From an uncultured Solibacteraceae bacterium (GTDB lineage Bacteria > Acidobacteriota > Terriglobia > Bryobacterales > Bryobacteraceae): a stretch of 64,000 nt of DNA. Made by a program: the position numbers and the translations under genes. Position 1 is the stretch's first letter, and each line of letters begins with the position of its first letter. The stretch lies in NCBI GenBank assembly GCA_963748795.1, contig CAVVLD010000118.1, positions 3,131 through 67,130 of the forward strand. Direction: 5' to 3'. The notes beneath the pieces are model-generated. The model did not search any database. It saw nothing but the letters and a program-made list of their open reading frames with translations, and was not told where the DNA came from. This document shows, piece by piece, positions 10,328 to 43,087 of this stretch.

Positions 10328-10390
10328 ACCTTCAATTCCGATATTAACACCACTTTGATGTGGGTGATATATCTGCAGGGAACAAACCGT

Positions 10391-10396
10391 TATAAT
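10391..10396 (+). promoter_or_regulatory. Possible -10 box (TATAAT) only 9 nt upstream of the MFS start codon
   Basis: Exact TATAAT at 10391..10396 and ATG at 10406. No Shine-Dalgarno sequence lies between them and no clear -35 box is present. Confidence 0.3.
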
Positions 10397-10405
10397 CAGG
10401 CTTCC

Positions 10406-11677
10406 ATGGCACTTGCCGCCGAAAGGCCTACATCGTCGCGATACCGATGGGTGATTTGCGGCCTTCTGTTCCTCGCCACGGTGGTGGCCTATATCGACCG
10501 CGGAATTCTCGGGTACCTTCAGGTGACCCTTCGCAAGGAGATCGGCTGGGACGACATCGCCTATGGATATGTGGCGGCCTCGTTCAAGGTGGCGTACGCC
10601 ATCGGCCTTGTGGCGGCCGGATGGTTCACGGACCGCTTGGGGACGCGCAAGGCGTTTGCCATCGCGATCGTGCTGTGGAGCTTCGCGGCGATGTCGCCCG
10701 GGCTGGCCACCTCGGCGTTCACCTTCGGCATCGCCATGTTTTTTCTGGGACTCGGTGAAGCGGCGAACTTCCCGGCCTGCATCAAGACTGTGGCGGAGTG
10801 GTTCCCCCGCAGTGAGCGCGCGCTGTCCACGAGCCTTTTCAACTCCGGCGCGAACATCGGCGCCATGCTGGTTCCGGTAGTGGTTCCGGTCCTGGTGGTG
10901 GCGTTCACGTGGCGGGGCGCGTTTGCCGCCGCCGGGGCTAGTGGATTTGTATGGCTGGTGCTGTGGTTGTGGCTCTACCGCAAGCCGGAGGATCACCCGC
11001 GTGTCTCGAAGGCGGAGCTGGCATACATTCAAAGCGACCCTCCGGAAAATCTGGCGCGCGTGCCGTGGGCCAGGCTGCTGCCGTGCAAAGAGACGTGGGC
11101 ATTCGGTATCGCCAAGCTCCTTACCGACGGCGTCTGGTGGTTTTACATTTTCTGGCTGCCGGGCTACTGGCAGAAGACTTTCCATCTGACGCTGGAAGGG
11201 AATCGGCTTCCGGTGATGCTGTCGTTCGGCATCTCGATCGTCGGTGGCATTTATGGCGGCTACCTTTCGGGGGCGTTGATCAAGCGGGGGAAGAAAGTCG
11301 GCACGGCGCGCAAGACGGCGCTGCTGGTGTGCGCACTATGCATCCTGCCGGTGGTCCTGGTCCCGTTCGTGAATAGTCTGTGGGTGGTTGTGGGTCTGGT
11401 CTGCCTGGCGATGGCGGCGCACCAGGGGTGGTCGGCCAACCTGTTCACGGTTCCCTCGGATCTATTTCCCAAGGCAGCGGTGGCCTCAGTGGTGGGTCTG
11501 GGCGGCATGCTGGGAGCGGCCGCGGGAGCGGGATTCGATGTATTCGTCGGCCACATCGTCGAATGGACTCACAGCTATGTGGCAGTGTTTGGAGTGTGCG
11601 GGTGCACTTATTTCGTGGCGCTGCTGATGCTGCATCTGATCTCGCCGACCTTCGCGCCGGCCAAGTTAAAATACTGA
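10406..11677 (+). CDS. MFS transporter, hexuronate/anionic sugar (ExuT/ACS)-like
   Basis: Intact ORF (track 10355..11677; I prefer ATG 10406, MALAAERPTSSRYRW). About 12 hydrophobic segments. Motifs YIDRGILGYL and GWFTDRLGTRK are typical of the ACS family. Confidence 0.8.
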   Translation: MALAAERPTSSRYRWVICGLLFLATVVAYIDRGILGYLQVTLRKEIGWDDIAYGYVAASFKVAYAIGLVAAGWFTDRLGTRKAFAIAIVLWSFAAMSPGLATSAFTFGIAMFFLGLGEAANFPACIKTVAEWFPRSERALSTSLFNSGANIGAMLVPVVVPVLVVAFTWRGAFAAAGASGFVWLVLWLWLYRKPEDHPRVSKAELAYIQSDPPENLARVPWARLLPCKETWAFGIAKLLTDGVWWFYIFWLPGYWQKTFHLTLEGNRLPVMLSFGISIVGGIYGGYLSGALIKRGKKVGTARKTALLVCALCILPVVLVPFVNSLWVVVGLVCLAMAAHQGWSANLFTVPSDLFPKAAVASVVGLGGMLGAAAGAGFDVFVGHIVEWTHSYVAVFGVCGCTYFVALLMLHLISPTFAPAKLKY

Positions 11678-11803
11678 TGCGAGCGAACATTCACAACGGC
11701 GACATCTTTGTGTACGTCTGTTCATAGTTGGACGGAGATACTTAGCGTCCGCGTACTTTCAGCGCGCCTGAAACCGGCAAATCTGGACTAGAATCGGGAT
11801 GTC

Positions 11804-12179
11804 ATGGCCGAAAGCAAGAAAACCATTCTGGTCGTCGATGACGAGCCGGAAGTGCGGAAACTGGTGGGCGCGGTGGTCAACCAGTCGGGCTACGTGGCCC
11901 TCACCGCCGATAGCGGCGAACACGCCCTCACACTGGTCAGGAAGCAGAAAGACCCGCTCGCGCTGCTCATCACCGACGTGGTCCAGCCCGGGCATGAGCG
12001 GACCTATGCTGGCCGACCGCCTCGCGGCCCTTCAGCCGGACCTGAAGGTGCTCTATATCTCCGGCTACGACAACACTCACGTGGTCCAGAAGTACGTAGT
12101 CGAAAAAGGTCACGCCTTGCTGACCAAGCCGTTCAACCTGGAAGACCTTCGTGCCAAGATGACGGCACTTCTGGCCTGA
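11804..12179 (+). CDS. Stand-alone CheY-like response regulator receiver (one frameshift near 11990)
   Basis: KTILVVDDEPEVRKLV ... LLITDVV then (frame of ORF 11799..12179) PGMSGPMLADRLAALQPDLKVLYISGY ... LTKPF. The switch lies inside cagCCCGGGcat. Confidence 0.8.
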
Positions 12180-12208
12180 GCGCGATTCAGTGCTAACATC
12201 ACGAAGAC

Positions 12209-12858
12209 GTGACCATTCGGCCCGCCAGCGACCGCTCTATCCTGGTTTCTTTCGGCGATGAAATCTCTCTCGCAATGCACCGGCAGGTGCTCGGGCTAAC
12301 GCGCACTCTGCAAGGCGTCCGCGGCATTCTCAACCTGCATCCCGCCTTTTCCACGCGTGCTGATCGATTTCGATCCGCGATTGCGCACCCACGCCGAAAT
12401 CGAGGCCCTGGTGCGGGAGCGCCTGGCCGCCGCCACGCACGAGCCGCTCCCGAGCCGCGAACCGTGGAGATTCCGGTCTGCTACGGCGGCGAATTCGGGC
12501 CGGACCTGGAAGACGTGGCCCGTCACAATTCGCTGACGCCCGCGCAAGTGGTCGAACGCCATTCCGCCGCCGAGTACGTGGTCTACTTCGTGGGCTTCGC
12601 CACCTGCTTTCCGTATCTCGGCGGGCTGCCGGCCGAACTGGCCACGCCGCGCCTTTCCGCCCCGCGCAAGCTGGTGCCGGCCGGCAGCATCGGCATCGCC
12701 GGCGCGCAGGCCGGCGTGTACCCCATCGCCTCGCCCGGCGGCTGGCGGCTCATCGGACGCACGCCGCTGCGTCTGTTCGACCCTCAGCCGAGCCACCGGC
12801 GCTCTTGCGGATGGGCGACCGCCTGCGCTTCGTACGCCTGCCGGAGTCGCCCCTGTGA
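12209..12858 (+). CDS. pxpB: 5-oxoprolinase subunit B (KipI/allophanate hydrolase subunit 1 family), frameshifted
   Basis: [21 protein letters not shown] ... NLHPAFS ... [19 protein letters not shown] ... [19 protein letters not shown] ... [24 protein letters not shown]. The stop TGA 12856..12858 overlaps the GTG of the next gene. Confidence 0.75.
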
Positions 12859-13744
12859 GCCGGATCCACGTTGTCTCACCCGGCATGCAGACCACGGTGC
12901 AGGACCTGGGCCGCTTCGGCTTCGCCCACTTTGGAGTCTCCGCCTCGGGCGCGGCCGATGCGCTGGCGCTGCGCGCCGGAAACCTGCTGGTGGGCAATGC
13001 CGAGAACGCCGCGGCGCTGGAAATGACCCTGGCGGGCGGCGCTTTCGAGTTCGAAGGCGATGCGGTGATCGCCCTCACGGGCTCGGATTTCGGCGCCGGC
13101 CTGCCGCTGTGGACCGCCATCGAGATCCGCGGCGGCCAAACCGTGCGCTGCGGCGCCACGCGCACCGGCGCGCGCTGCTACCTGGCCGTGCGCGGCGGCA
13201 TCGCCGTTCCCAAGGCGATGGGCAGCGCGTCGGTCCACATCGTGACCGGAGTGGGTGGACGGCCGTTGCGCAAGGGCGACATGCTGCCGGTGGGCGATGC
13301 CGCGGTCCGCAAACCACGGCCGGCGGCTCGCCAGGTGCCGGAATACGTGCGCGGCGGTTCGCTTCGCGTCACCGCGGGACCGCAGGCCGATTGGTTCGCG
13401 GGCGAACTGCTGGCCTCTCCCTACACCGTCACCGAGGAATCCAATCGCATGGGCCTGCGGCTCTCGGTCCGGCCATTCCGAGCCATGCCGGCCACATGCT
13501 CACCGAAGGCGTGGCGCTGGGCGCCATTCAGGTGCCGCCCGACGGCCAGCCCATCATCCTCTTCGTGGAGCACCAGACCACCGGCGGCTACCCCAAGCCG
13601 GCCAACGTGATCTCCGCGGATTTCTGGCGCCTGGGCCAATTGCGCCCGCGCGACCAGGTTCGCTTCGAGCAAGTTACTATCGAGGAAGCCGTCGAGCTGC
13701 TGCGCGATCAGGAGCGCTGGCTCTACAGCCTGGGACAGCGGTAA
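12855..13744 (+). CDS. pxpC: 5-oxoprolinase subunit C (KipA/allophanate hydrolase subunit 2 family), one frameshift near 13480
   Basis: [30 protein letters not shown] ... NRMGLRL ... [41 protein letters not shown]. Pieces lie in ORFs 12855..13610 and 12209..13744. Confidence 0.75.
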
Positions 13745-13749
13745 CGCTT

Positions 13750-14436
13750 ATGACTATCGACCTGAACTGCGACATGGGAGAACTGGAAGACGCGGCGCAT
13801 GAAGCCGCCCTGATGGAGTACATCACGTCCGCCAACATCGCCTGCGGCGGACACGCCGGAGACGACGCCATCATGGAGCGGACCGCGCGGCTGGCCATGG
13901 AGCGCGGCGTCCGCATCGGCGCCCATCCCGGCTATCCCGATCGCGCCAATTTCGGCCGCATCGAAATGCCGCTGACGCCGAGGCGATCGAGAGCACCGTG
14001 CTCGAACAGATCCAGCGGCTGGACGGCATCGTCAGGCGCCTGGGCGGCGAGATCGTGCATGTGAAGCCTCACGGCGCGCTCTACAACGTGGCGGTGCGAA
14101 ATCGCGAAGTGGCGCAGGCCATCGGCAGGGGCGTGGCCCGCTGGAATCCGCGCATCCCCATCTTCGGCCTGGCCGCATCGCCCATGCTGGATGTGTGGCG
14201 CGAAATGGGGCTTGACGGCCACCGCCGAAGCATTCGCCGACCGGCGCTACGAGCCGGACGGCACGCTGCGCAATCGCAAGTTCCCCGATGCCCTCATTAC
14301 CGATCCCGCCGCCGCCGCCGCGCAGGCCGTGCGGCTGGCGCGCGAGGGCAAAGCCGAGACCATCTGCGTGCACGGCGATACTCCGGGCGCCGTCGCCATC
14401 CTGAAAGCCTGCCGGGAGGCGCTGCTAAACCAGTGA
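13750..14436 (+). CDS. pxpA: 5-oxoprolinase subunit A (LamB/YcsF family), two frameshifts
   Basis: IDLNCDMGE ... [11 protein letters not shown] ... [14 protein letters not shown] ... [10 protein letters not shown] ... [17 protein letters not shown] ... [11 protein letters not shown]. Pieces lie in ORFs 13255..14064, 13998..16604 and 14191..14436. Confidence 0.8.
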
Positions 14437-16086
14437 TGAAATTGCTCCTGCTGCTGGCCGCTGCCGTTCCGCTCTTCGGCCAGACGACTCAGTGCACATA
14501 CAAGCTTTCGGCGGGAGGAGTCGCCGTGAGTGCCGCCGCCAGTGTTGCCGGCAAGCTCCCCTCGTTCACCGTGACCACTCCGGGCACTTGCCCGTTCGTG
14601 GCAGTCACAGCGGCCACCTGGCTGCACATCCAGGCGCCCGCGAAGGGCACGAATTTCGCGGGCACGAGCCAGGTATCTTTTTCCGTGGATGCGAACACCA
14701 GCGCGCAACTCCGTACCGACCAGATCCTCATCTATCCCGGCACGCAAGTGACTCCCGACAGCCAGTCACTCGGATACGTAGTGGCTCAAGTGGCGGGTAT
14801 CTGTGACTACTCCCTCTCCGCCTCCTCAGCCACCGTACCGGCCACCGGCGGTTCCGGAAGCTTCACCGTCAACACAGGCTGCACCTGGGGCGCCACTACC
14901 AGCACCTTCATTACGGCAACTGCGCCGAACGGCACGCTGGGCACCGGACCCATCAATTACCAGGTCTCCGCGAATCTTTGCGCCGCACCGCGCACCGGGC
15001 TGATCACGCTGCAAACGGGATTGGCGAATCCTCCGGTCTTCCAGATCACGCAGGATGGGTCACTCTCCAATTTCACGCTCTCGCCCGCCGGCGTGACTGA
15101 CCCGGCGGGCGCACTCACCAATCAGAAAGTGACTGTGACCACCGGCGCCGGCTGTCCCTGGAGCGCCTATACCGATTCGGCCAACTGGCTGCACCCCACG
15201 GGCGCCTCGGGAACCGGCCCGGGCGTTGTGACTTACTCCGTGGATACCAACCAGGGCGCATCCCGAACCGGCCACATTTATTTTCAATCGGGCGTCGATC
15301 TGACGGGAAACCCGATTCTGGCCGCGACTCTGACTGTGACTCAGCAGGCAATTCAGGCCACCGGGCCGATCCTGGCCGCCGTGGTGAACGACGCCAGTTA
15401 CGACATCGGGACGCCTGCGCCCATATCCATCTCGCCCGGCGAGATTGTGGCGCTGTTCGGCAGCAACCTGGGACCTGTTGCGGGAGTCGTCAACACGCAG
15501 ACCTTTGGAACCAGCCTGGGCGGTGTGCAGGTGATGTTCGGAAATACCGCCGCACCCCTGCTCTACGTCTCTGCCGGCCAGATCAACGCCGTGGTGCCTT
15601 ACGCAACCGGCGGCTCCGAGTGTGGCGGTGACGGTGAGTTACAACAACTCGAATTCGCCGGCGTTGACGGTGCCGGTGCAGGCGGCGACGCCGGGGATTT
15701 TTTCCTACGATCGCTCCGGCAGCGGACCCGGCGCGATTCTGAATCAGGACTACAGCGTCAACTCCGCGGCGCGCCCGGCCGCGAAAGGCAGCGTGGTGGC
15801 GATCTACTGCACCGGAGCGGGAGTCACTGTGCCGGCATCCACGGATGGCGCGCTCGCCACGCTCACTCCGCCCTTTCCGAGCCTGGCCGCCCAACCGGTA
15901 ACCGTGACCATCGGCGGCCTTTCGGCGGACGTAGTTTATTCCGGCGCAGCGCCCGGCGCGATCAACGGCCTGACTCAGATCGATGCCGTCGTGCCCGGCG
16001 GGTTGAAATCGGGTTCCTCGGTTCCCGTGGTGGTGACGATTGGCGGCGTCTCGAGTCAGGGCAATCTCTCGATGTCCGTTCAGTAA
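14436..16086 (+). CDS. Secreted multi-domain protein with BACON/Ig-like repeats and a TIGR03437-type (Solibacter uncharacterized C-terminal) domain; one frameshift near 15610
   Basis: Signal peptide [17 protein letters not shown]. There are three repeats of the type CxYxLS...GGSGSFTVxTxxGCxW. The C-terminal part reads PGEIVALFGSNLGP ... APLLYVSAGQINAVVPY ... PGIFSYD ... GSVVAIYCTGAG ... YSGAAPGAINGLTQIDAVVP. Pieces lie in ORFs 13998..16604 and 15622..16086. Confidence 0.7.
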
Positions 16087-16665
16087 ACGGCCGGGCGAGC
16101 GGTATCCTGTGGAGATGCGAGAATTCAAGCTGGCGATCCTCCGCGCTTTGCATTGCGCGAATCGCAGTCCTGACATCGCTTCTCGTGGTCCCTGCCGCGG
16201 TTGCCTCCGATGTGCCCGATTTTTCCGGCGTATGGGTGGAGACACAGCCCGAGAGCGGTCCGCCCATGAGGTTGCAAGTGACTCAGTCCGGCTCAAGACT
16301 GCAGGTTCGAATCAGTTTTCGCGATGACTACTTCCCGGACGCTGTCTTCCGTACAGCGACGATCGAAAACGGAGCCGCGAGTTGGACCATACCGCAAGGC
16401 TGTATCGCACGATTCCGCTGGCTGGGCTACAACTACGATAATCCGGGGTTAACCACGTTCACGCTATCGCTTCGCGAGCCCGCCGAGTCCGGAGAATCTG
16501 GCCCGCTGCTCGTCTATGTGCAGAAGATCCATTGGGACGTGCCGTGTGCCAGTAACCATCCGATCGGCACAGAGCAGGTTCAGAGAATATTGAGGCGGCG
16601 GTAGCCCGGGGCAGCTAGAATGAGCCATGCGCTCGTTCATCCTAGTCATCACAAAGCGCCTGCGC
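15642..16665 (+). repeat. Direct repeat copy 1 (about 1.02 kb), paired with 19748..20763
   Basis: Aligned by eye base for base with 19748..20763, with mostly scattered single-base differences and a few small indels. It covers the last ~145 codons of the TIGR03437 gene, the small downstream gene and the first codons (MRSFILV) of the next gene. Confidence 0.9.
16115..16604 (+). CDS. Small secreted protein of unknown function (copy 1; one frameshift just after the start)
   Basis: MREFKLAILRAL (frame of ORF 16040..16327), then IARIAVLTSLLVVPAAVASDVPDFSGVWVETQPESGPPMRLQVTQSGSRLQVRISF...NHPIGTEQVQRILRRR (tail of ORF 13998..16604). Signal peptide present. No family recognised. Confidence 0.5.
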
Positions 16666-16776
16666 TCTTGAAATTCCGGGGGAGGGGTCAACGCGATATC
16701 CCTACGCGTCTTGGCGTGATCCTCTTCTTCGCTTCTCAGGCGTTGAACAAGTTGCTCCTTCCGCTTCGATTCAGGG

Positions 16777-17679
16777 TCAAAGGTTGGAATGCGCACTAGG
16801 ACGCACGCAATCCAGGAAACCGGCATCCTGTCTCCACGCGTGCAGACGGGGGCAGGTTATTTGGTTCCGGGGATGCGCGGCATACCTTCCGAAGCTGTCT
16901 TCCACGAATGCATGCAGATCGTAGAGGCGGGTACCGGCTTTGAACAGGTAGGATCCCGGCAGCGACATGGCCCGACCGAGCTCCGGGTAGAGCGGCCATA
17001 CACAGCTACTTAGCAATTCGTCCGGAACATACGACTCTACTAGCCGAGCATCGACCTCAATACCCAGTCTGTGCATGATTTCAGCAGCCAGATCCGCCAA
17101 CACGAACAGCTTGGGGTGGTTAATGGTGTGCATAAAGACCCCGCGCTGGGTCCACGAGCGGTAGAGCTTTTCGAAAGGAAAATCAAATTGTCGACCGACC
17201 ACCAAAAGGGCTTGCTGAGAGCTTGCCCAAGCGTCGAAATATCCGGCGCGCTGGTAGACGCTGGCCCGGAACATCCCCACCGTCTCTTCCACCCCCATGC
17301 CCTCCGTATAGCCGAACAGCGCCAGTGCGGAATTGTAGTCGCCCAGCGCTGAATGCACAGGATGGCCGGTATCCTTACGGCTGGCAAGTACACAATCGGG
17401 GTGAAAGGCATGGAAGTTTACCGGTGGACAGATCATCAGATTTCCGCACGCAGCTTTTAGGACAGGCAGCAAGTCCGGTTCGCCGAATAGATTTTCCAAA
17501 GGTGCTATCGCGATCAGCTTGTCGTAAGTAGCAAACTCGGCCAGCATTTCGCCCTTATTGCGAAAACTCAAGGGAAACTCCGGTAGAACGTAGAGAGTGC
17601 TGACAGTAGCAGGGTGATAAAAGCGCAGACACCTCCCAATCCCATTACTGAGGCAGTTCCCTACGATGCCTATTCGCAC
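16777..17679 (-). CDS. WcbI-like polysaccharide-biosynthesis-associated protein (tentative)
   Basis: Intact 300 aa ORF. It has the N-terminal IVGNC motif, FHAFHPD, GDYNSALALFGY..G...EET and FMHTINHPKLFVLADLAAEI, which I recall as features of the WcbI domain family. No HMM was run. Confidence 0.45.
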   Translation of the reverse strand: MRIGIVGNCLSNGIGRCLRFYHPATVSTLYVLPEFPLSFRNKGEMLAEFATYDKLIAIAPLENLFGEPDLLPVLKAACGNLMICPPVNFHAFHPDCVLASRKDTGHPVHSALGDYNSALALFGYTEGMGVEETVGMFRASVYQRAGYFDAWASSQQALLVVGRQFDFPFEKLYRSWTQRGVFMHTINHPKLFVLADLAAEIMHRLGIEVDARLVESYVPDELLSSCVWPLYPELGRAMSLPGSYLFKAGTRLYDLHAFVEDSFGRYAAHPRNQITCPRLHAWRQDAGFLDCVRPSAHSNL

Positions 17680-18806
17680 GAGTCACCGTTCAACCCATGT
17701 GGTTGTGGTTTCACCGCTGGAACTTCGCTCTCGATGATGTCATCATCGCAAACAACGGCTTGCATGGCAGCCAGCTCGCTTCGGAAGTAGGTCTTGTCCG
17801 GAAACGACGCGCCGGAGATTGCCTGCGGGGCGCCATCGGCCAAAAAGTGGGAGCAAAATACTCGCATCACATGGCCGAGGCCGAACTCACTTACTGATCG
17901 TAAGTCATTCTCGTAATATCTACCCTGCGCATGTGGACCAGTTACGATTTCGTAGGCAGGAAAATAGGCCACCCGCGCCCGCGCAGCACAGCAGGATTCC
18001 GCGGCTACTCGGAGTATAGACTTACTAAGGCAGGTAGCAGCTAGGACATGCCGCGGCTGGTAAGTGGCCCTGAGTGGGACGGGAGATACCGTCAGAACCA
18101 CCCGGCAGCGGGAATTGACGCTACGCAAGCGATCGACGAAGGCTAGCAAATCATCGGTCACGTCGGCGCAGGAATAATTCGAGAAGCGATACAGCGCCGG
18201 ATGCCAATCCCCAGCCGCCACTCCAGGAGCCAGCGGCAAAAGCGCCCCATCCTCCTTGTATTCCCAGGCTTCCGTAAGTCCCAGAGTAGAACACCAGGAC
18301 GTCGAGCTCCTCGAACAGCCGCCGCACACAGGCCAAGTGCTCCCTTCGATCATCCTCCAGAGCCTTTACAGAAAGAAAGCCACCGGGTTTAATACGCGGC
18401 CGGAAGGGATCCACATATTCGTTGGACGGGCCGCGCCAATGGGACAAGCAAGGTCGAAAACGGCCATACGCCCGGTCGAAAAGCTGCACCAACTGCCGGG
18501 CTGTGTAAATGTTTCCGTACCGTGCGGAAAGGGCGCATGTCCCTCCCTCTCCCCAGCGGGAACTTGTTCGGCCACGAAGTAGTGAAATCCCAGAGCCTGG
18601 AGATTGCGCGAGAGATGCTCGGCAAAGCAGCTTCCCGCGCTGGCAATGGCATCATTCCTGTTGATGAGGAACGGCGAGTTAATGAGCGGATCTACCGCGA
18701 ACGGTGGAACTGCCGCCACTGCTCTGCTCCAAAACGCGTGGTCCGGCAGTTCGGAGTAGGGATTGTGGCCAGGTTTCTGCGAGTCCGGATCGCGCATTAG
18801 GTTCAT
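17670..18806 (-). CDS. GSCFA-family protein (SGNH-like, function unknown), two frameshifts
   Basis: Eponymous motif ASAGSCFAEHLSRNL in ORF 18366..18806, then RYGNIYTARQLVQLFDRAYGRF (ORF 18151..18492 frame), then TLGLTEAWEY ... VVLTVSPVPL ... YFPAYEIV (ORF 17670..18353). Confidence 0.65.
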
Positions 18807-18984
18807 TCCGAAATTCTAACCCACGGCTGAACCCCACGGGTTAGCACAAAAGCTCTGGCTTGCGAGGAAGTCCGAACGACCGGCGTCCAAGTGCACCGCA
18901 CCGACCGGCTCTCCGTTGTGCTAGCCTTCCAAAAGGTTTCGAAAGCAGAGCATCCGAAGTAGTCTGTTTCCAGAAAGCAAAGCT

Positions 18985-19683
18985 ATGACAAGAGACGAAA
19001 TTCAAGCCCAGGTAGATCGCATTAAATGGTGGCACCAGATCGATTTGGGGCAAGGCATTATTACTCCCGGGCTCGATCCTACCATCGATCGTGTCCGCCT
19101 CCTGGGTTTGCCCAACGACCTTCGAGGCAAAACCGTTTTAGATATTGGGGCTTGGGATGGAGCTTTCGCATTTGAGGCGGAACGCCGGGGTGCCAGTCGT
19201 GTTCTGGCTATCGACGAGTTCATTTGGGCTGGCAAGGGTTGGGCTTCCAAAGAGGGCTTCGACGTCGCACGACGTATTTTAAATTCTAATGTGCAAGATA
19301 TGTTGATCGATGTCTATGAAATTGCACCGGAGAACGTCGGCCTATTCGACCTGATAATATTCTCTGGCGTCCTATATCATCTGCGGCATCCCCTATTGGC
19401 GCTCGAACACGTAGCCAGCGTTTGCAAAGACCAGCTCATTTTGTCTACACATATTGATCTGATCAGCGTGCAACGGCCGGCGATCGCCTTTTATCCAGGC
19501 AAAGAATTAGCCGGCGATCCGACGAACTGGTGCGGCCCGAATCTTCCGGCACTAGAAGCCATGCTCCGGGACGTTGGTTTCGACCGTGTGGAGGTTGTCG
19601 ATTCCAGTCCAGCACCCGAACCCTACGACATCGATAAAATCTACCGAGGGTGGGTTACCGTCCACGCTTGGAAGACCAGCTAA
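18985..19683 (+). CDS. Class I SAM-dependent methyltransferase (DUF1698/CmoB-like N-terminal pattern)
   Basis: Intact 232 aa ORF. Motifs: WWHQIDLGQGIITPG, motif I VLDIGAWDGAFAFEA, and FDLIIFSGVLYHLRHP. Confidence 0.75.
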   Translation: MTRDEIQAQVDRIKWWHQIDLGQGIITPGLDPTIDRVRLLGLPNDLRGKTVLDIGAWDGAFAFEAERRGASRVLAIDEFIWAGKGWASKEGFDVARRILNSNVQDMLIDVYEIAPENVGLFDLIIFSGVLYHLRHPLLALEHVASVCKDQLILSTHIDLISVQRPAIAFYPGKELAGDPTNWCGPNLPALEAMLRDVGFDRVEVVDSSPAPEPYDIDKIYRGWVTVHAWKTS

Positions 19684-19705
19684 TGGCACTGAACAAATTG
19701 GAATT

Positions 19706-19734
19706 CTCGTCAAGCAGAATTCTTATCAGACGAG
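19706..19734 (+). terminator. Hairpin after the methyltransferase gene
   Basis: CTCGTC aagcAGAATTCTtatca GACGAG lies 23 nt after the stop. The stem is short and there is no T-tract, so this is a weak call. Confidence 0.3.
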
Positions 19735-19776
19735 CAAGCTTGGTCGCAGAACAACTCACTTTCACCGGCGCTGACG

Positions 19777-20193
19777 GTGCCGGTGCAAGCGGCAACGCCG
19801 GGGATTTTTTCCTACGATCGCTCCGGCAGCGGGCCCGGCGCGATTCTGAATCAGGACTACAGCGTCAACTCCGCGGCGCGCCCGGCCGCAAAAGGCAGCG
19901 TGGTGGCGATCTACTGCACCGGAGCGGGAATCACTGTGCCGGCATCCACGGATGGCGCGCTCGCGACGCTCACTCCGCCCTTTCCGAGCCTGGCCGCCCA
20001 ACCGGTAACCGTGACTATCGGCGGCCTTCCAGCGGACGTAGTTTATTCCGGCGCAGCGCCAGGCGCGATCAACGGACTGACTCAGATCGATGCTGTCGTG
20101 CCCGGTGGATTGAAATCGGGCTCCTCGGTTCCCGTGGTAGTGACGATTGGCGGCGTCTCCAGTCAGGGTAATCTCTCGATGTCCATTCAGTAA
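19777..20193 (+). pseudogene. 5-prime-truncated copy of the TIGR03437 C-terminal domain
   Basis: ORF 19777..20193 (PVQAATPGIFSYDRSGSGPGAILNQDYSVNS...SSQGNLSMSIQ) matches the last 138 residues of the 14436..16086 product almost residue for residue. It lacks a signal peptide and all upstream domains. Confidence 0.7.
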
Positions 20194-20221
20194 ATGGCCG
20201 GGCAAGCGGTATCCTATGGGG

Positions 20222-20712
20222 ATGCGAGAGTTCAAGCTGGCGTTCCTCCGCGCTTTGGCATTGCGCGAATCGCAGTCCTGACGAGTCGCTTCTCGTGGTC
20301 CCTGCCGCGGTTGCCTCCGATGTGCCTGATTTTTCCGGCGTATGGGTGGAGACACAGCCCCCAGAGCGGTCCGCCCATGAGGTTGCAAGTGACTCAGTCC
20401 GGCTCAAGAATGCAGGTTCGAATCAGTTTTCGCGACGACTACTTCCCCGCTGCCTTCCGTACAGCGACGATCGAAAACGGAGCCGCGAGCTGGACCATAC
20501 CGCAAGGTTGTACCGCACGATTCCGCTGGCTGGGCTACAACTACGATAATCCGGGATTAAACACGTTCACGCTCTCGCTTCGTCAGCTCGCCGAGTCTGG
20601 AGACTCCAGCCCTCTGCTTGTCTATGTGCAGAAGATCCGTTGGAACGTGCCCTGTGCCAGTAACCATCCGATCGGCACAGAGCAGATTCAGAGGATACTG
20701 AGACGGCGGTAG
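20222..20712 (+). CDS. Small secreted protein of unknown function (copy 2; several frame changes)
   Basis: MREFKLAFLRAL..., VVPAAVASDVPDFSGVWVETQP (ORF 20295..20549 frame), and SGPPMRLQVTQSGSRMQVRISF...NHPIGTEQIQRILRRR (ORF 20194..20712). Paralog of 16115..16604. Confidence 0.45.
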
Positions 20713-20734
20713 CCGAGGGGCAGCAGAATGAGCC

Positions 20735-21248
20735 ATGCGCTCGTTCATTCTAGTCGCCTGCGCAACTGCCTTATGTGGGCAGACAGTTATGGAATCGCGG
20801 GCACGACGAGTGTCACGCTTGGAACAGCCCTTGGATGACCTCGCCAGGCAATGGCTGCTCGATCCCTTACCTCAACACAGAGCTTGGGGGGCGAGATTGG
20901 CCCAGCCGTGTTGGGGACTCCTCGCTCGATGCCGACTTAGTCGCCGCTTTGGGCGACCTCGGGTCAGTCGCGGCAGGACCGGAGGACGACGAGCACAGAA
21001 TGCGTCTCGCCCTGCTTGACGCCCTGATACAACGCGGGAGCATGGTTCCAGAGGAAGCCGGTCTATCCCTGTTCCGGCAGTATCCCGCTCAGGCGCTGAT
21101 TATGTTGTATCGGAGAGGTTGTCCTCACCTTGCAACCAGCCTTGCAATACTGAACAGAGCGATTGCCGACGAAGCTTGGCTGGCGGCAGCAGGTGCCTGG
21201 CCCGACAGCCAGGAGGGCCTGTCGAGCTATTGCAACGTGTGCGAGTGA
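20735..21248 (+). CDS. Hypothetical secreted protein (frameshifted; may extend further downstream)
   Basis: Signal-like MRSFILVACATALCGQTV (ORF 20735..21019), then ORF 20775..21248 (DADLVAALGDLGSVAAG...LLDALIQRG...ALIMLYRRG), vaguely HEAT-like. Plausible continuations lie in other frames to about 21564. Confidence 0.35.
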
Positions 21249-21799
21249 AGGCCCGGATCGAGGTTTTCGACGTAGAAAGAGAGAGGACTATTGGCGGCAC
21301 TCCGGGCGGCCCCCTGGCCGGCATCATCGGTTCGATTCCCAGCGAGTGGCCCCCGGAAACTACTTAGGGCTTGCGATTGATCGGGAAGCCGGGGCAGGCT
21401 ACGTTCTATTGAGCGGCGGACCGCATCCCCGTATATTACGTGAAAAGATCGATCTCCGAGTGACTGGCGCGAATCGGACTGTAACTGGCATCGTGGAGAC
21501 CGGAACCAATTCGCCCTGGACATTCTTGCCAGTAGCGCTGGGTCACCTTTCGGCCGCCCTCTAGAACCGGTAGGCCGAGCGAGACTGCACTGGGCGACGC
21601 CAGAACAAGGCCACATCGATTTGGAAGCGCTCGCGGACGACCTGCAACGGAGGTACTCCCAGTTGCTCTCCGGCTTGATGAGTCGGAAACTGTTGACCCC
21701 CCTTGAGCGCAGCCGCTGCCCCAATCTGTCGATATCGAAGTCTATGACAATCGCATCGATCGGAGTCAAGCTCTCCCGATCCTGGCAGTTCACGAACAG

Positions 21800-22153
21800 C
21801 TTAAATGATCTTTCAAAAACCAACTGGTCGCCCGCCAGCGTACCGGTTCGTTGCGCGGTGCCCGCGGGAAGTTCCAGGATGGAACGCGCCGAAAGGCACA
21901 TCGAAAGCCGCCACGCCGGCACCGCGTGACGCACTTTGCGGACTTTCTTTTGCTTGTCCAGATACACCAGGTCGATCGGAAATTTCATAAAGAACGTGTG
22001 GACCGATTCGCAAGGAGTGATCCACAGTCCCTGTCCGGCGTCCAGGCGGTCGTGTTTCAACAAACCGGTCCGCCGGGTCGAACTGCTATCCGCCACGTCC
22101 ACGGCATCGCCTAAAACGGTGTCGCGGGTCTGATTGCGCACCAATACTTTCAA
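21800..22153 (-). CDS. DUF192 (COG1430) family protein; 3-prime end uncertain
   Basis: The first ~115 residues of ORF 21227..22153 show the DUF192 pattern (MKVLVRNQTRDTVLGDAV ... GLLKHDRLDAGQGLWITPCESVHTFFMKFPIDLVYLD ... ILELPAGTAQRTGTLAGDQLVFE). The remaining ~190 residues are Arg/Ser-rich and look like read-through after a missed stop near a T run at about 21805. Confidence 0.55.
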
Positions 22154-22397
22154 TTTGATTTGAAAACTATAACACGCTGGAGGGGCGGGCGGTTGCGGAG
22201 GCGTTCGGAAAGCCGGTCACGCACGTGTTCCGGCACATTCTCGGAAGCCGTAACTCATTGTTTCTCTTTATGTTTTTGTTTTTTCGACTGCCGGCGCGGG
22301 CCGGAATCGTGCAACCGGCCAGTTACACTGAGGGCGTTGGAAGAGTTCGCCTCTCTCCCGCGCCCATCCGGGTGCGGATTCATTTTCCGGAGGAAAT

Positions 22398-23681
22398 ATG
22401 TTTTCGCGTTTCTGGTTCGCAGCCGTGCTGGTGTCGTCCGCGCTCGCTGCCGGTCCGGCGTTGACCACGATTCAAGACGTGCTTTACAAGGCCGATGGTA
22501 CCCGCTTCAACGGTTCGGTGACGATCAGTTGGAACAGTTTTCAGGCTGCCGATAACTCCAGCATCGTGACGCAATCCACCACGGTGAAAGTAGTGGACGG
22601 AGTGTTTCGCGTGCAACTGGCGCCCACCACCACCGCCGTCCCTCAAGTGTATTATTCCGTCGTCTATACCAGCGATGGCCGCGTGCAATTCCAGGAAACC
22701 TGGGCGGTGCCCTCGAGCGGACAAGCGCTGCGCATCCGCGATGTGCGGATTGCCGCCGCGACCGCCGCGTCGTCGTCGGGTTCGAGCGCCGGCGATACCG
22801 GCACCACGCCGATACCCGAGTCCTCGGTAGTCGGACTGATTGCCGACCTTGGTTCCCGCCCGCTCAAAGGCGTGTCCTACGCCGCCGGGTCGGTGGCTGT
22901 TGTGGACCCGACCGGCATGTTGTCTTCGGTGAGCGGCGCGCCGTCGGATTGCGTCCACGTGGACGGATCGTCCGGCCCTTGCGGTGGGGTGCAGCCTTCG
23001 TTCATTGACAGCGAGGCGCTCAGCGGCATCGTGGACGGGGCCAACAACCTCTTCGGGATCTCGACCGTGCCGGATCCCGCCAGCAGTTTGGCCATCTACC
23101 GCAACGGCATGCTCCAGAAGGCCGGCCAGGATTTCAGCGTGACCGGCAGCACCGTGCAGTTCCTGACCGGAGCGACGCCGCAGCCCGGCGATACCCTCCT
23201 GGCCAGCTACCGCGTAGAGAGCCAGGATCCCGGAGGCGCAGCCCGCCACCAGCCCGCAGGTGCTCTGTAGCGGCTCCGGCGGCACTACCAGCAGCCTGAC
23301 CCTCGCGAACATCGGCAGTTGCGCCGTTCAACCCGGCGTGCTGCAGCCGGGCGACCGCCTGGAAATCCGCTTTGACGCGGCTCACACCGGGAACCGCCGC
23401 GGGCTTTTCGCGTGGAAGTGGACTGGGGAGGCACGGTGCTGGTGCATCGCGATGCCGCCGCCGGCGATGCGCTGATGACCGGCATGGCCGGCGCGGCCAT
23501 CCAGGACACCGGCGCCCAGGTGAGTTCCCAAAGCTGGGGCACCATCCTGCCATTCGCCGCGACAGTCGGAACCGCCGGCGACGATTACGCCAACGGCTTG
23601 AGTATTTCGTTCCAGGGCAAGGTTGCTCAAACCGGCGACAGCGTGACGCTAACCAACTTCACGGTGGTGCGCATCCCTTAA
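22398..23681 (+). CDS. Secreted hypothetical protein, beta-rich (two frameshifts near 23240 and 23400)
   Basis: Signal peptide MFSRFWFAAVLVSSALAAGP, followed by ORF 22398..23270, ORF 23260..23475 and ORF 23412..23681. Contains LAIYRNGMLQKAGQDFSVTGSTVQFLTGATPQPGDTLLASYRV. No family recognised. Confidence 0.5.
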
Positions 23682-23713
23682 TTTCTTCGTACAATACGTG
23701 AAGGAGACTTTCA

Positions 23714-24040
23714 ATGGAAGACGGTCACGAGTCGGCCACGAAAGCAGACCTCTTGCAGTTGGGTGAGCAGCTACGTTCCGAGTTCCATCACGGTTTTGAC
23801 GATGTCAAAGAGCAGCTACGTTCCGAGTTCCAACACGGCTTTGACGATCTCAAAGAAACCCTGCGCGACGTGCAGACCGAGCTGCTAAGGGCATTCTACA
23901 GCTTCGCCCAAAGCACCGAGACGAAGCTCAAGGAATCCGAACTCGCCGACTTCATGCTCCGACAGCGGCTCACGGCTGTCGAAGCAAGGCTCCTCGAAGT
24001 CGAAAAGCGGCTGAACTTCCCGAATCAGCCCCCTCAGTAG
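23714..24040 (+). CDS. Small coiled-coil protein with an internal 15-residue tandem repeat
   Basis: Intact 108 aa ORF with AGGAG at 23703..23707 upstream. It is heptad-like and charged, and EQLRSEFHHGFDDVK is followed by EQLRSEFQHGFDDLK. Confidence 0.5.
   Translation: MEDGHESATKADLLQLGEQLRSEFHHGFDDVKEQLRSEFQHGFDDLKETLRDVQTELLRAFYSFAQSTETKLKESELADFMLRQRLTAVEARLLEVEKRLNFPNQPPQ
23765..23854 (+). repeat. 45-bp tandem duplication (2 units) inside the coiled-coil gene
   Basis: gagcagctacgttccgagttccatcacggttttgacgatgtcaaa is followed directly by gagcagctacgttccgagttccaacacggctttgacgatctcaaa (4 mismatches). Confidence 0.9.
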
Positions 24041-24055
24041 GTCAGGCGCATTTTC

Positions 24056-25076
24056 TACCCCACATACCGCGCGTACAAACTTCGCGCGACTCCCGGATCG
24101 GCCGTACCTTTCACGATGGCGCGGCCGTCCGGAAATACCGTCATCTCATAAGGCGGAATGAAAAACCGCAGGGCGATATTCGTTGGCGCGGACTTCACCC
24201 AGCGGCCTCAGCCGCGCCGCCAGGTCCCGCAGATCGATGGGCCTTTCGCGATCGCGGACCTGCACCGCATTGCGGCCGCACAAGCTCACCGGCGGGCAGT
24301 GCGGTTCGTTCCAGGTACGGGAATTCCCGCCGCCCGCAGGTCGGACATTCGGGATCGCGCGGCGGGCCGCCGATCTGGCGGATGCCGCCCTCCCAGACAT
24401 CGACGGTGGTGATGCGCGGGCGCACCAGGTGCGCATTGCCGGAGAGAATCTTCAGCGCGTCGGCCACCTGCAGGGAAGCCACCACCGATACGATCGCATT
24501 CAGCACGCCGGCCGTCTCGCAGGTGGGTTGGACTCCCGCGGGCTGCTCCGGATAGACGCACCGCAGGCAGGCCGTCACGTCCGGAATCACCGGCATCGCC
24601 AGGCCGTAGCTGCCGACCGCGGCTCCGTAGATCCAGGGAATTCCGCGGCTCACGGCGTAATCGTTAATCAGGTAGCGCGTGTCGAAATTGTCGGTGCCGT
24701 CCAGGATCAGGCCGGCGCCGTCCAGCAAATCTTCCACGTTCGCGGCCGTCAGGTCCGCCACCGCGGCGCGGACGGAAATGCTGGAATTGATGGCGGCGAT
24801 GCGTTTTTGCGCGGCCACCGCCTTGGGCAGGGACTCGGCCGCGTCGGCTTCTTCGAACAGCCACTGGCGCTGCAGATTGCTCGGCTCCACGTAGTCGCGG
24901 TCGACGATGGTGAGCCGGCCCACGCCGGCCCGCGCCAGCGCCGCCGCATGGAAACTGCCCAGGGCTCCGCAGCCGACGATCGCCGCGTGCGACCGCAGCA
25001 ACGCCTCCTGCCCCGCTTCTCCAATTCCTGGAAACAGGATCTGCCGCGAATATCGCTCGCGCCCGGCCGGGTCCAT
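24056..25076 (-). CDS. ThiF/MoeB/HesA-family E1-like adenylyltransferase with C-terminal extension (frameshifted near 24290 and 24150)
   Basis: [34 protein letters not shown] (nucleotide-binding loop), [29 protein letters not shown], and Cys pairs CLRCVYP and [12 protein letters not shown]. The tail continues in other frames ([27 protein letters not shown] ... [18 protein letters not shown]) to TAG at 24056. Confidence 0.75.
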
Positions 25077-25084
25077 GGAAGCTC

Positions 25085-28000
25085 ATGGTAACAAAGTTGC
25101 TATGGAGCGCTTACGCTATCATGAGGATCGTGTGCCGGCGGTTTGCCTTCATTCTTCGCGCGCTCCTGCTTGTCTGCCGTGGGCGGGCTGCGGATCGGGC
25201 CAGGCTCAGATATCAAAAGTACGAAGGCCAGCCGATAAAGAACATTCAGTTCGATCCCGCGGCGCAGCCCCTCGAACCCGATGAGCTGTTTCAGATTCTG
25301 CCCCTGAAACGCGGCCAGCCGCTTCAAATGTCGGTGGTGCGCGCCAGCATCGAACGCCTGTTCGCCACCGGACGGTATGCCGACATTCAGGTCGAGGCCG
25401 ATCCCTACGAAGACGGCGTGATCGTCCGATTCGTCACCACCAATAGCTGGTTCATCGGGTCGGTTACGGTGCGCGGCGACGTCTCCAACCCGCCCAGCGC
25501 CGCACAACTGGAAAATGCCACCCAACTCAACCTGGGCGAGCCTTACACGGAATCCAAACTTACGATGGCCCAGGCGAACCAGCGGCGCCTGCTGGAAGCC
25601 AACGGACTGTACCACGCCACCGTGCATCCTTCGTTCGATTGGGAAACCGGAAGAGACTACCAACAGGTGAACATCACGCTTGGAGGTGGATAGCGGACCG
25701 CGTGCCCATTTCAGCACACCTGTGCTGGTCGGCGATGCCAAGATGGATCCGGACCGGATTCTCCGCGCCACCAAGTTCCGCCGGTGGATCATTCACACCT
25801 GGAAGCCGATGACCCAGACGCGCGTGCGCCAGGCGCTGGATGGAGTGCGCGCCCTCTACCTGAAGGACAACCGTCTGGAGGCCAAGGTCTCGCTGGATAG
25901 CATGAAGTTCGACGACGCGGAGAACACCGCGCGTGCCCACCCTGCGCATCGACGCCGGACCGACGCATCATCGTGAACACCATTGGCGCCAAGGTTTCCG
26001 AAGGCAAACTGCGCCGCTACATCCCGATTTACGAAGAGCACGCGGTGGATCACGATCTGCTCACGGAAGGCGCCCACAACCTGCGGGATTATTTCCAATC
26101 CGCAGGCTATTACGACGCCGAGGTGGAATTCAAAGAGCAGAACGTGATCAACGACCAGGCCACGATCGACTACCTGATCAACATCGGCGACGCGGCACAA
26201 ACTGGTCTCCATCCAGATCAGCGGGAATCGCTATTTCAGCACCGGGATGTTGACGCGAGCGCATGTTCCTGCGCACCGCGTCGTTTCTGCAGTTCCCGCA
26301 CGGCCGCTACAGCGAGAACCTGGTGGCGCGCGACGAGGACACCATTCGCAACCTCTACCAGTCCAACGGATTTCGCGACGTGGAAGTGACCCACCGGTCG
26401 CAGGACGACTACCAGGGGCAAGACCGGCGAAATCGCGGTCTTCTTGACGATCAAGGAGGGGCCGCAGTATTTCATCAATAACCTGCAGGTGAGCGGCATC
26501 GAGAAACTGGATCCGCAAACTGGTGCTCTCGCAGATCAGTTCCGTCCAGGGCCAGCCCTTCAGCGAATTCAACGTCGCGGTGGACCGGGACACGATTCTG
26601 GCGAAGTACTTCGAGAAAGGCTTTCCCAATGCCACGTTCGAATGGAGTTCGAAGCCGGCAGCCGCAGCCCTACCGGGTGGATTTGCAGTTTCGTGATTCA
26701 CGAAGGCAGCCAGCAGTTCGTGCGGCAGGTGGTCTACAGCGGCAACTCAAGGACACCAGGACCGCATCGATCAACCGCACTCCTGGAACTGAATCCCGGC
26801 GATCCGCTCTCTCCCACGGCCATCACCGATACCCAGCGGCGCCTGTACGATCTGGGCGTGTTCGCGCGCGTGGACGCTGCCATTCAGGATCCCGACGGCG
26901 AGACCGACCGCAAGTACGTGCTCTACCAACTGGACGAAGCGCGGCGCTATCTCGATCGCGTTCGGCTTCGGCGCCGAGATTGCGCCGCATCGGCGGGTGC
27001 AGCACCTGCCTGGATGCTCCCGCCGGCGCCACCGGCTTTTCGCCGCGCGTCTCCTTCGACATCACGCGCAACAATCTCTGGGGGATAACCCACAGCATCA
27101 GCCTGCGCACGCGCGTTTCCACGCTGGAACAGCAGGCCCTGCTCACTTACACCTGGCCGCGTTTCGCAGGACAACGACAATCTGAGCTTTCTCGATCACC
27201 GGACTGTACGACAACTCGACGGATGTGCGCACGTTTTCGTCCAGGCGGGAAGAAGGCTTCGCTGCAGCTCTCCCAACAGCTCACGAAAGCCACCACGCTC
27301 TTCTACCGCTACTCCTACCGCCGCGTGAGTATCGACCAGGCCACTTTGAAGATCACGCCGTTTCTGATTCCCCTGCTGTCGCAGCCGGTCCGCGTGGGCG
27401 AACTTTCGATGTCGGCATGATCCAGGATCGTCGCGACGACCCCGTGGATCCGCACAAGGGCTTCTACAATACGATCGACGTCGGGCTGCCGGAACACGTC
27501 TTCGGATCGCAGCGCAATTACGTACGCTTTCTGGGCCGCAATGCCACCTACTATCCGCTCAGCCAAGCGGCTGGTGCTGGCGCGCAGCACGCAATTCGGC
27601 GATGATCTACGCGTTCAACTACAGCGGCGATCCGCTGGACGCCATTCCGCTGGCCGAGCGCTTCTTCGGCGGCGGCGGCACTTCCCACCGCGGCTTCCGC
27701 GAAAATCAGGCCGGCCCGCGCGATCTCGACACCGGGTTTCCGCTCGGCGGCACGGCCCTGCTCTTCAACCAGACCGAACTGCGCTTTCCGCTGATCGGCG
27801 ACAATATCGGCGGCGTGCTGTTTCACGATATGGGCAACATCTACTCCAGCATCGACAACGTTCTCGTTTCGCGTGAAGCAGCGATGACTTGCAGGACTTC
27901 GACTACATGGTGCACGCGGTGGGCTTCGGCCTGCGCTACCGCACACCCGTCGGCCCGGTGCGCGTGGACCTGGCCTACAGCCTCAATCCACCGCACTTTT

Positions 28001-36949: not shown

Positions 36950-37718
36950 ATGCTCGAACTTCGCAACGTCTCCAAGCGATTCCCCGGCATCGCCGCGGTG
37001 GACAACGTCAGCTTTTCGGCGCGCGCCGGCGAAATCACCGGCTACCTCGGGCCGAACGGCTCCGGCAAATCCACCACCATGAAGATGATCACCGGCCTGA
37101 TCGAAGTCGACCTCCGGCGCAGATTCTCTTCGACGGCGAGCCCATCCAGCGCGACCTGATCGCCTACAAGCAGCGCATGGGCTACGTGCCGGAAGAGCCG
37201 CATCTCTACGCGCATCTCAGCGGCCTCGAATACCTGACGATGGTCGGGCCAGTTGCGCGACCTGCCGGCGAAGCCGACCGCCGAGCGCATCGACGGCCTG
37301 CTGCGCCTGCTCTCGCTGCACGGCGACCGGCACGCGCCCATCTCGTCCTACTCGAAAGGCATGCGGCAGAAGGTGCTGCTCTCCGCGGCGCTGCTGCACA
37401 ATCCCGACCTGCTCCTGCTGGACGAGCCGTTCTCCGGGCTCGACGTGGGCACGGCGCTGGTGCTGCGCAGCCTGATCCAGGAACTGGCGGCGCGCGGCAA
37501 GGTGGTGCTGTTCAGCTCGCACGAACTCGAGACGGTGGAGCGCGTCTGTTCGCACGTCGTGATTCTGCATCGCGGCAAGATCGTGGCCGACGATTCCATC
37601 GAGCGTCTGCGCACGCTGATGGCGCTGCCCACGCTGGAAGAGCATCTTCTCGCAGCTCGCCGTGGAGCAGGACACCGCGGCGATTTCGCGCGAGATCGCG
37701 GATCTGATCCGGGCATGA
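36950..37718 (+). CDS. ABC transporter ATP-binding protein (ABC-2/CcmA-like), frameshifted
   Basis: Walker A GPNGSGKSTT, Q-loop GYVPEEP, signature YSKGMRQKV, Walker B LLLLDEPFSGLD and H-loop SSHELE. Pieces lie in ORFs 36950..37159, 36931..37707 and 37253..37957. The stop TGA 37716..37718 overlaps the next ATG. Confidence 0.85.
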
Positions 37719-43048: not shown

Positions 43049-43087
43049 GGTGTAGTTGGCGGGCTTGTCTCGCGGGTCTATAGCAAT

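Follow-up and report, generated by a model that had tools for sequence, protein, structure and literature searches.

A direct repeat around a foreign gene cassette in an uncultured Solibacteraceae bacterium: a possible scar of recombination between diverged alleles

INTRODUCTION

Hotspots of gene flow that lie between conserved core genes are a general concept of bacterial population genomics. Another well-known outcome of recombination is the Campbell-type insertion-duplication, in which a single crossover integrates a circular molecule and leaves a duplicated segment, as with suicide plasmids or integrated F-primes. A third kind of arrangement is the 3′-end displacement orphan, found downstream of rhs, cdiA and type VI secretion system (T6SS) effector genes, for which an origin by homology-facilitated illegitimate recombination (HFIR) was proposed (Kirchberger et al., 2017, PMC5361080); such orphans were also treated by Jackson 2009, Poole 2011 and Koskiniemi 2014, as cited in PMC5361080. 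According to the works cited in the same paper, HFIR occurs in transformable bacteria and in Escherichia coli conjugation (de Vries and Wackernagel, 2002; Prudhomme et al., 2002; Meier and Wackernagel, 2003), and PMC3240628 offers a precedent for orphans that arise from a homologous anchor plus an illegitimate joint. Here we analyze a 64,000-nucleotide stretch of DNA (the window) from an uncultured Solibacteraceae bacterium (GCA_963748795.1, contig CAVVLD010000118.1, positions 3,131 to 67,130), in which two direct repeats of about 1 kb bracket 3.1 kb of compositionally foreign DNA. Our best explanation, to which as a whole we give a probability of about 0.42, is that the arrangement is a recombination product in which two diverged alleles of one three-gene locus, here called A-B-C, came to adjoin within a hotspot.

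THE REPEAT PAIR AND ITS JUNCTIONS

A preliminary description of the window, made by eye, had placed direct repeats at 15642..16665 and 19748..20763, differing by scattered substitutions, a few small indels and one 10-nt insertion. Alignment agrees with this in full, with left edges that are only 1-2 nt off. Copy 1 (R1) spans 15643 to 16665 and copy 2 (R2) spans 19750 to 20763. The local alignment of 15643-16647 with 19750-20755 has 1010 columns: 942 identical ones (93.3%), 59 with substitutions and 9 with gaps. The 10-nt insertion, ATCACAAAGC, lies in R1 at 16648-16657 and is found once in the window; a further 8 nt, GCCTGCGC, match after it, and the repeat ends at 16665 and 20763. This insertion, 8 nt from the end of R1, is possibly filler at an illegitimate joint. 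When the region from 13 to 23 kb was compared by BLASTN with the entire 64 kb window, the self-comparison check of the preliminary description, this single pair was the sole repeat found, and such uniqueness places it far beyond chance.

Each copy carries the last 441 nt of gene A, which encodes a secreted protein with a TIGR03437 domain, then a 23-nt spacer, the small gene B and the opening codons of gene C. The repeat begins at about position 85 of the 225-position TIGR03437 domain. In R1 these parts are the 3′ end of A, the A-B spacer, the first copy of B (B1) and the first codons of C; in R2 they are a 5′-truncated fragment of A, the spacer, the second copy of B (B2) and the start of a full gene C. 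The fragment in R2, which we call the orphan (19750 to 20193, plus strand), covers TIGR03437 positions ~85-225 and seems to be an allele from another lineage; its start falls at profile position ~85-92. Direct reading and domain matches confirm the earlier statement that copy 1 is continuous with the full TIGR03437 gene on its left and ends in a stub that begins MRSFILV, and the profile position together with tblastn does the same for the statement that copy 2 starts abruptly inside the domain and runs into the full gene C. The intact genes thus stand on the outer sides, the truncated copies face inward, and no gene is lost. The joint at 19749/19750 is abrupt, and the ends of the DNA between the repeats carry no repeats of at least 8 nt.

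ANCESTRY OF THE TWO COPIES

Relatives were found by a protein search with the frame-corrected gene A, and their contigs were then compared with the window. For L009, identity to the window is 96.7% along 11.7 kb to the left of the locus and 94.9% along 7.2 kb to its right, with similar values for L008 and L010; L012 (~90%) and L011 (~87%) are more distant. The homology of the relatives to R2 starts exactly at 19750 and ends at 20202. Over the 453 nt that can be aligned, R1 differs from L008, L009 and L010 at 16 sites and R2 differs from them at 33, with 25 differences between R1 and R2; in the 444-nt coding part the corresponding numbers are 14, 30 and 24. The A part contains 21 sites that are specific to R2 against 4 changes in R1, and 15 of the 20 coding changes in R2 fall at third codon positions. 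When L012 and L011 serve as outgroups, the 444-nt coding part has four clean sites that unite R1 with the relatives and none that unites R1 with R2, and in neighbour-joining trees R1 groups with L009 at 90% bootstrap while R1 groups with R2 at 3%. Copy 2 therefore has an ancestry separate from that of copy 1.

Both copies have been under purifying selection. Third codon positions account for 18 of the 24 differences between R1 and R2 in the A part. Nineteen of the 24 are synonymous and 5 non-synonymous, which gives a ratio of non-synonymous to synonymous substitution rates (dN/dS) of 0.09; had copy 2 evolved neutrally after a local duplication, 5 or fewer non-synonymous changes among 24 would have P = 3e-4. 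Only 4 of 147 residues differ between the A 3′ ends, and the variants specific to R2 include I at AGITVP, P at GLPADV and I at SMSIQ. In the mature part of B, dN/dS between B1 and B2 is 0.21, with dS of 0.21 compared with 0.17 in the A part. The low dN/dS and the mostly synonymous differences indicate that copy 2 spent nearly all of its separate history in a functional gene, and such a history effectively rules out a recent duplication in place followed by decay. Copy 2 thus appears to have been truncated recently, and to be either an allele of another lineage or a functional paralogue of old date. In the B part, the closest relative of B1 is the protein P0001 (90% identical); B1 shares two derived residues with it and sits on a near-zero branch, while B2 has a long branch (~1 versus 11 residues). 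This weakly suggests that each copy belongs to one lineage throughout, with a short-branch R1 and a long-branch R2 in both A and B.

Gene conversion between R1 and R2 was considered for 12 sites at which the two copies agree and L009 differs, and was rejected, since these sites interleave at distances of 3-30 nt with R2-specific ones; at least 4-6 of the 12 are changes on the L009 branch. A donor was also sought through the 90% cluster of the orphan fragment, and its members P0228 and P0229 lack the R2-specific residues. Changes derived in the window amount to 36 per kb in R2, 9 in the left flank and 13.5 in the first 4 kb of the right flank; the ratio tests on these values are not significant, and neither divergence profiles nor outgroup-polarised counts give a significant assignment of R2 to one of the flanks.

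A STRAIN-VARIABLE ISLAND BETWEEN TWO CONVERGENT GENES

The homology of the window to its relatives stops 5-9 nt past the stop codon of gene A (16091-16095) and resumes at 21811-21819, at the 3′ end of a DUF192 gene (Pfam label taken from the relatives' gene) whose 21811 to 22153 on the minus strand form the conserved right flank. The whole stretch between these convergent genes, 16096 to 21810, and not merely the DNA between the repeats, is absent from the closest relatives. In L009 and L010 the corresponding space holds a 720-aa TIGR03437 paralogue on the opposite strand, in L011 a 277-aa open reading frame (ORF) and a DUF3738 gene, and in L012 an unrelated ORF (coordinates 11660-15722 in L008 and L009, 11654-13756 in L011 and 2572-3110 in L012). 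Five lineages thus show five different contents between A and DUF192, with break points no more than about 10 nt from the gene ends. Since different DNA lies between the same two genes in each lineage, we regard 16096-21810 as a strain-variable island, larger than the repeat structure that lies in it, in a small recombination hotspot that has neither an integrase nor a tRNA. This island is context that goes beyond the preliminary description, which had proposed that related genomes would show an empty site. A simple empty A-B-C site is not what the relatives hold: those that are 94-98% identical to the window lack 16096-21810 and carry unrelated DNA in its place. The A-B spacer is still kept in L008-L010 up to the start codon of B, from which it follows that B was lost there.

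In likeness to the hotspots of gene flow known from other bacteria, the site has variable contents between two conserved genes and breaks at the gene ends, and in one lineage a mobile element of the IS630 family has entered it. It differs from them in being small (1.7-5.7 kb), in lacking a tRNA and an integrase and in being bounded by two convergent stop codons. The IS630-family element (DDE_3 and HTH_23 domains) is at 12602-13772 of L008 and interrupts the 720-aa TIGR03437 paralogue, which is uninterrupted in L009. At the other boundary, the last four codons and the stop codon of DUF192 (E-T/P-L-P-stop in L009 and L011) have been replaced in the window. The DUF192 frame there (minus-strand ORF 21227-22153) stays open for about 190 codons further, antisense to gene C; this extension may be real, or it may be another consensus error.

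Searches for an arrangement of A-B-C without the intervening DNA gave none among the relatives, and A-B adjacency was found only on the 1.8 kb contig that encodes P0001, where B directly follows a gene A 3′ end and a different gene follows B. A genome scan yielded no match to B and, with A as query, only the two related metagenome-assembled genomes (MAGs) that were already known plus one paralogue. A metagenome scan with an alignment of B gave 7 loci, none of them near A, C or the DNA between the repeats. Homologues of B at 55-73% identity were considered as empty sites and rejected, as their contexts are unrelated.

The flanks themselves are not uniform in their divergence. L008 and L009, which come from different samples, are 0-1% apart over about 7 kb around the hotspot and 7-10% apart a few kb to the left (window-equivalent positions 9649-13148 versus 14649-27772), and the window is 0.2-8.7% from L009 depending on the segment. 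Such a pattern points to a strongly mosaic, recombining population, or to strain-switching in the assemblies.

COMPOSITION AND GENES OF THE CARGO

The 3.1 kb between the repeats (16666 to 19749), from here on the cargo, had been called AT-richer than its flanks by eye, and the base composition and tetranucleotide profiles both agree. The GC content of the cargo is 55.4%, compared with a mean of 63.1% (SD 2.8%) for 3 kb segments of the window; no other 3 kb segment is equally low, and its tetranucleotide usage is the most deviant among the 3 kb stretches. Domain searches found in it three genes, for a WcbI-like protein, a GSCFA protein and a methyltransferase, and from these the cargo may be described as a putative, horizontally acquired polysaccharide-modification cassette.

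The gene for the WcbI-family putative polysaccharide acetyltransferase is at 16777 to 17679 on the minus strand; it is full length (300 aa; PF18588, E = 6.5e-25), and the nearest relatives of its product, of equal length, are 71% and 54% identical. The GSCFA-family gene (PF08885) occupies 17670 to 18806 on the minus strand in three frames, with breaks near 18285 and 18548. The GSCFA-WcbI pair is kept in another genome (L007, GCA_037025085.1) at 73% nucleotide identity, and the GSCFA gene is intact there. Domain matches assign the 232-aa product of 18985 to 19683, on the plus strand, to the class I S-adenosylmethionine-dependent methyltransferases (TIGR04290-like or DUF1698-like). A hairpin with a 6-bp stem (CTCGTC ... 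GACGAG) lies 3′ of the methyltransferase stop codon at 19700-19736, 13 nt before the joint of cargo and R2; it has no T-run and no known role.

The cargo showed no homology to the islands of the relatives and no match to plasmids, phages or viral contigs. Domain searches found no replicon or mobilisation genes in it and no Pfam match to a recombinase or transposase, and the IS630, IS91 and Y2 transposases, the serine recombinase and the tyrosine integrase from related loci gave no tblastn match anywhere in the window. A tRNA, inverted repeats of at least 30 nt, terminal repeats of at least 8 nt and a target duplication were likewise looked for in vain. The preliminary description had seen no integrase, transposase or att-like repeats, and these Pfam, tblastn, tRNA and repeat searches support it. 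A transposon, a composite of insertion sequences, an integron cassette and an integrase-borne island find no support as explanations, as the enzymes, terminal repeats, target duplication and tRNA that they call for were all not found.

QUALITY OF THE CONSENSUS SEQUENCE

How the small differences in this region are to be read depends on the quality of the window. Compared over 18.9 kb with L009, which has intact genes, the window has 68 indel events, about 1 per 280 nt, and almost all are single extra bases. Genes are split across frames all through the window, among them those for an ABC ATPase, MacB/FtsX, PxpA, a beta-lactamase-fold protein and GSCFA (examples of split genes are at 13255-14433, 36950-37954, 41786-43052 and 17670-18806). 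The inserted bases often create CG and sometimes occur in clusters of 2-3 within 10-35 nt, and are possibly systematic. All this is best read as a noisy long-read consensus, in which indels of 1 nt would mostly be no evidence of gene decay. The 1-nt indels between R1 and R2 count six events, which matches the general error rate of the window, and they are therefore not to be read as mutations. Pseudogenisation was also considered for the frameshifts in A, B2, GSCFA and C, and was rejected because the same 1-nt insertions occur window-wide relative to L009 with its intact genes. The earlier description of truncated pseudogenes holds in one part only: the inner copies are indeed truncated, but the stubs and frameshifts are partly artefacts of the consensus, and pseudogene calls from this contig are unsafe.

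The related MAGs are bins named 'uncultured Solibacteraceae bacterium' and labelled MFD, a label that matches the Microflora Danica study. The MAGs of that study were built from Nanopore reads only, with metaFlye assembly and one round of Medaka polishing (PMC12313526). We infer that the contig of the window comes from the same project.

ORIGIN OF THE ARRANGEMENT

We consider it quite probable that the structure is real and joins two diverged alleles of the A-B-C locus. One of these would comprise the left flank, A1, B1 and the stub of C that leads into the cargo; in it, C would have been cut earlier, after about 10 codons, by the horizontally acquired polysaccharide-modification cassette. The other would extend from the A fragment through B2 and the full C into the right flank; its source would be a related lineage about 6-7% away. 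The likeliest way to join them is that a linear fragment from a related strain underwent homologous recombination in one of the conserved flanks and was sealed by an illegitimate joint at 19749/19750. In the outcome A and C would both be intact and B would be present twice, with the orphan 3′ end of A and the stub of C as leftovers. The linear form of the donor, the side of the homologous anchor and the relative age of the two junctions can be given only as suppositions. We favour this HFIR-type route because islands at this site are exchanged through conserved flanks in a mosaic population, and we propose it tentatively, at a little under even odds. It would share with HFIR one end formed through homology within a conserved flank and a second end that is an abrupt non-homologous joint, with foreign DNA trapped by the anchor. 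It differs in that HFIR events in the laboratory usually delete DNA of the recipient, whereas here a 1 kb duplication is left.

The arrangement can also be compared with 3′-end displacement orphans. As in those, a full-length gene is followed by its own 5′-truncated 3′ end together with a small partner gene, the orphan resembles the allele of another lineage, and the site is strain-variable and has no dedicated recombinase. The differences are that the 3′ ends are conserved here and lack polymorphic toxin domains, that B, with its signal peptide, has nothing to mark it as an immunity protein, that there is a single orphan and not an array, and that a three-gene cassette lies between the two units. 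A polymorphic toxin-immunity module of the rhs, contact-dependent inhibition or T6SS kind was rejected on the same grounds, namely the few residues that differ between the A 3′ ends, a TIGR03437 domain without a toxin domain match and the signal-peptide-like N-terminus of B.

Several points weigh against our explanation. Neither junction has support from a second assembly, and the cargo and orphan proteins are found on one contig only. No donor-like genome and no 'empty' A-B-C arrangement came out of the genome and metagenome scans. The divergence of the flanks assigns R2 clearly to neither of them, and the argument that each copy is of one lineage rests, for its B half, on the single protein P0001. 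Finally, an outcome in which no gene is lost is automatic in a Campbell-type integration, while under HFIR it arises only when the illegitimate joint lies within the stretch of homology.

The preliminary description had proposed just such a Campbell-type event, in which a circle carrying about 1 kb of a related strain's locus (from mid-A to the start of C) and the cargo entered a resident A-B-C locus by one crossover. This accounts for the exact topology, since in Campbell integrants too direct repeats bracket the insert, with truncated copies inside and intact ones outside, nothing lost and the whole reversible if the two repeats recombine. In its A part, copy 2 is foreign when set against copy 1 and the relatives, and the higher number of window-derived changes in R2 than in either flank looks as if only R2 and the cargo had been imported. 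The idea that homologous DNA came from elsewhere is supported by the 90% bootstrap value and the synonymous bias; for the circular donor there is no such sign. The cargo has no genes for replication, mobilisation or recombination and no plasmid, phage or viral match, and a vector or replicon backbone or another sign of a circle is missing. A reciprocal hybrid is not apparent in the repeats, which are 6-7% diverged. A circle with one repeat and the cargo would most easily be made from a structure that already held the repeats, and a resident empty A-B-C site is found in no relative. A weaker point is that R1 is recipient-like across A, with a branch pattern that continues through B, which would confine the crossover to about the last 100 nt of the 1 kb. 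The topology that was claimed is therefore present, while a Campbell-type route to it is unproven and, in our view, unlikely. The same topology could come from a recent tandem duplication of the 1 kb in place and an insertion of the cargo where the two units met, as had also been suggested, after which the inner copies would have decayed; yet R1 is nearer to the orthologues of other MAGs than to R2 by the bootstrap values given above, the truncated A retains its low dN/dS against the neutral expectation, and the cargo would have had to land exactly on the duplication joint. We hold this to be very improbable.

An ancestral tandem pair of functional A-B-C units, in which the cargo later replaced the part from early C1 to mid-A2 in a single insertion-deletion, would account without any import for the purifying selection on the two copies and for the depth at which copy 2 branches; replacement events are evidently common at this site. 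Such old paralogues would need a duplication that predates the split of L008-L010 and then vanished there entirely, but no second gene A or orphan is present in five related lineages and no other TIGR03437 copy in the window, and we regard them as improbable. Another possibility is that the islands of two co-occurring strains were stitched serially in a noisy, probably low-coverage, Nanopore metagenome assembly. The poor consensus with its split genes, the Nanopore-only metaFlye and Medaka origin of the nearest relatives, an identity of 93% that is typical between strains or species, and the lack of an independent contig with either junction all suit an artefact of this kind. Yet both junctions must exist in reads, and a serial path needs a read that joins the right end of the cargo to mid-A; in a soil metagenome, a chimeric read that by chance linked two parts of one 5 kb locus would be very unlikely. 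The substitutions between the copies are biased by codon position and hence biological. Stitching of strains is accordingly rather improbable to us.

If the joining of two alleles is the right explanation, the locus is an ordinary though tidy scar of strain-to-strain recombination and represents no new kind of element or mechanism. It would be a natural example, from an uncultured soil acidobacterium, of a core-gene hotspot that gains foreign genes, with an orphan gene end as a datable scar, and it would show DNA exchange in Solibacteraceae populations at divergences of 5-10%. Recombination between the two 1 kb repeats could excise the cargo once more, and loss or amplification of the polysaccharide-modification cassette between them is possible in principle. 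The interest for the population genomics of soil Acidobacteriota is moderate and comes with the caveat on sequence quality. A much bolder and distinctly doubtful idea is that the gap between A and DUF192 is a dedicated module-exchange site in Solibacteraceae, in which the TIGR03437 3′ end serves as recombination anchor in the way of the rhs and cdiA cores. If so, strains would trade surface-glycan-related genes (B, C, the WcbI/GSCFA/methyltransferase cassette and other TIGR03437 paralogues), with old modules displaced downstream to become orphans, and the very large family of TIGR03437 paralogues would be landing pads for strain-level diversification of the cell surface.

GENES A, B AND C

Gene A (14436 to 16086, plus strand) encodes, by Pfam and NCBIfam matches, a secreted BACON / IPT-TIG / TIGR03437 (Soli_cterm) protein with a signal peptide, a BACON domain, a TIG domain and TIGR03437 positions 2-72 followed by 77-225. 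Comparison with L009 shows that its frame is shifted by one extra base at about 15618, and once this base is removed the protein has 549 aa. As it is then 99% identical to the intact 549-aa protein P0077 of three related contigs, the extra base is most likely a consensus error.

Gene C (20735 to 21795, plus strand) would encode about 350 aa and belongs to a family without a Pfam domain. It is full length in shifting frames: residues 1-358 of P0197 (361 aa) cover 20735-21784 in tblastn, and proteins of 300-390 aa match over almost their entire length in broken frames. A search with its ORF at 20775-21248 found 29 relatives among 1.8 billion representatives. The stub of C next to R1 (16627 to 16671, plus strand), read directly against the sequence from 20735 onwards, consists of MRSFILV, seven unrelated codons and a stop (MRSFILV-ITKRLRS-stop).

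Gene B encodes a signal-peptide protein of about 163 aa from a small family without a Pfam domain, of which 26 clusters were found. B1 is at 16109 to 16604 and B2 at 20216 to 20712, both on the plus strand. The mature part of B1 is in one frame, with its MREFK start offset by +1. In B2 the mature part is intact; four extra single bases, with a net effect of +3 on the gene, lie in the signal-peptide region and resemble the consensus errors in other parts of the window. The +1 offset between the MREFK-type start and the mature frame, relative to P0001, is common to both copies (16115-16145 and 20222-20255), which makes random noise an unlikely cause; the true start of B may lie elsewhere, or neither copy may be active.

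The homologues of B at 55-73% identity occur in unrelated neighbourhoods (L001 at 10001-16351, L002-L005 and L006). One of them adjoins IS91 and Y2 transposases, a serine recombinase and a tyrosine integrase, while others follow gpsA or macB, and in this B resembles a gene that shifts from place to place. On L006, a Solibacteraceae-like contig of 2 Mb, type III CRISPR-Cas genes (Cas10 palm, Csm2 and RAMP) occupy 15747-17615, at a distance of 5 kb from its B homologue; they are unrelated to the repeat structure.

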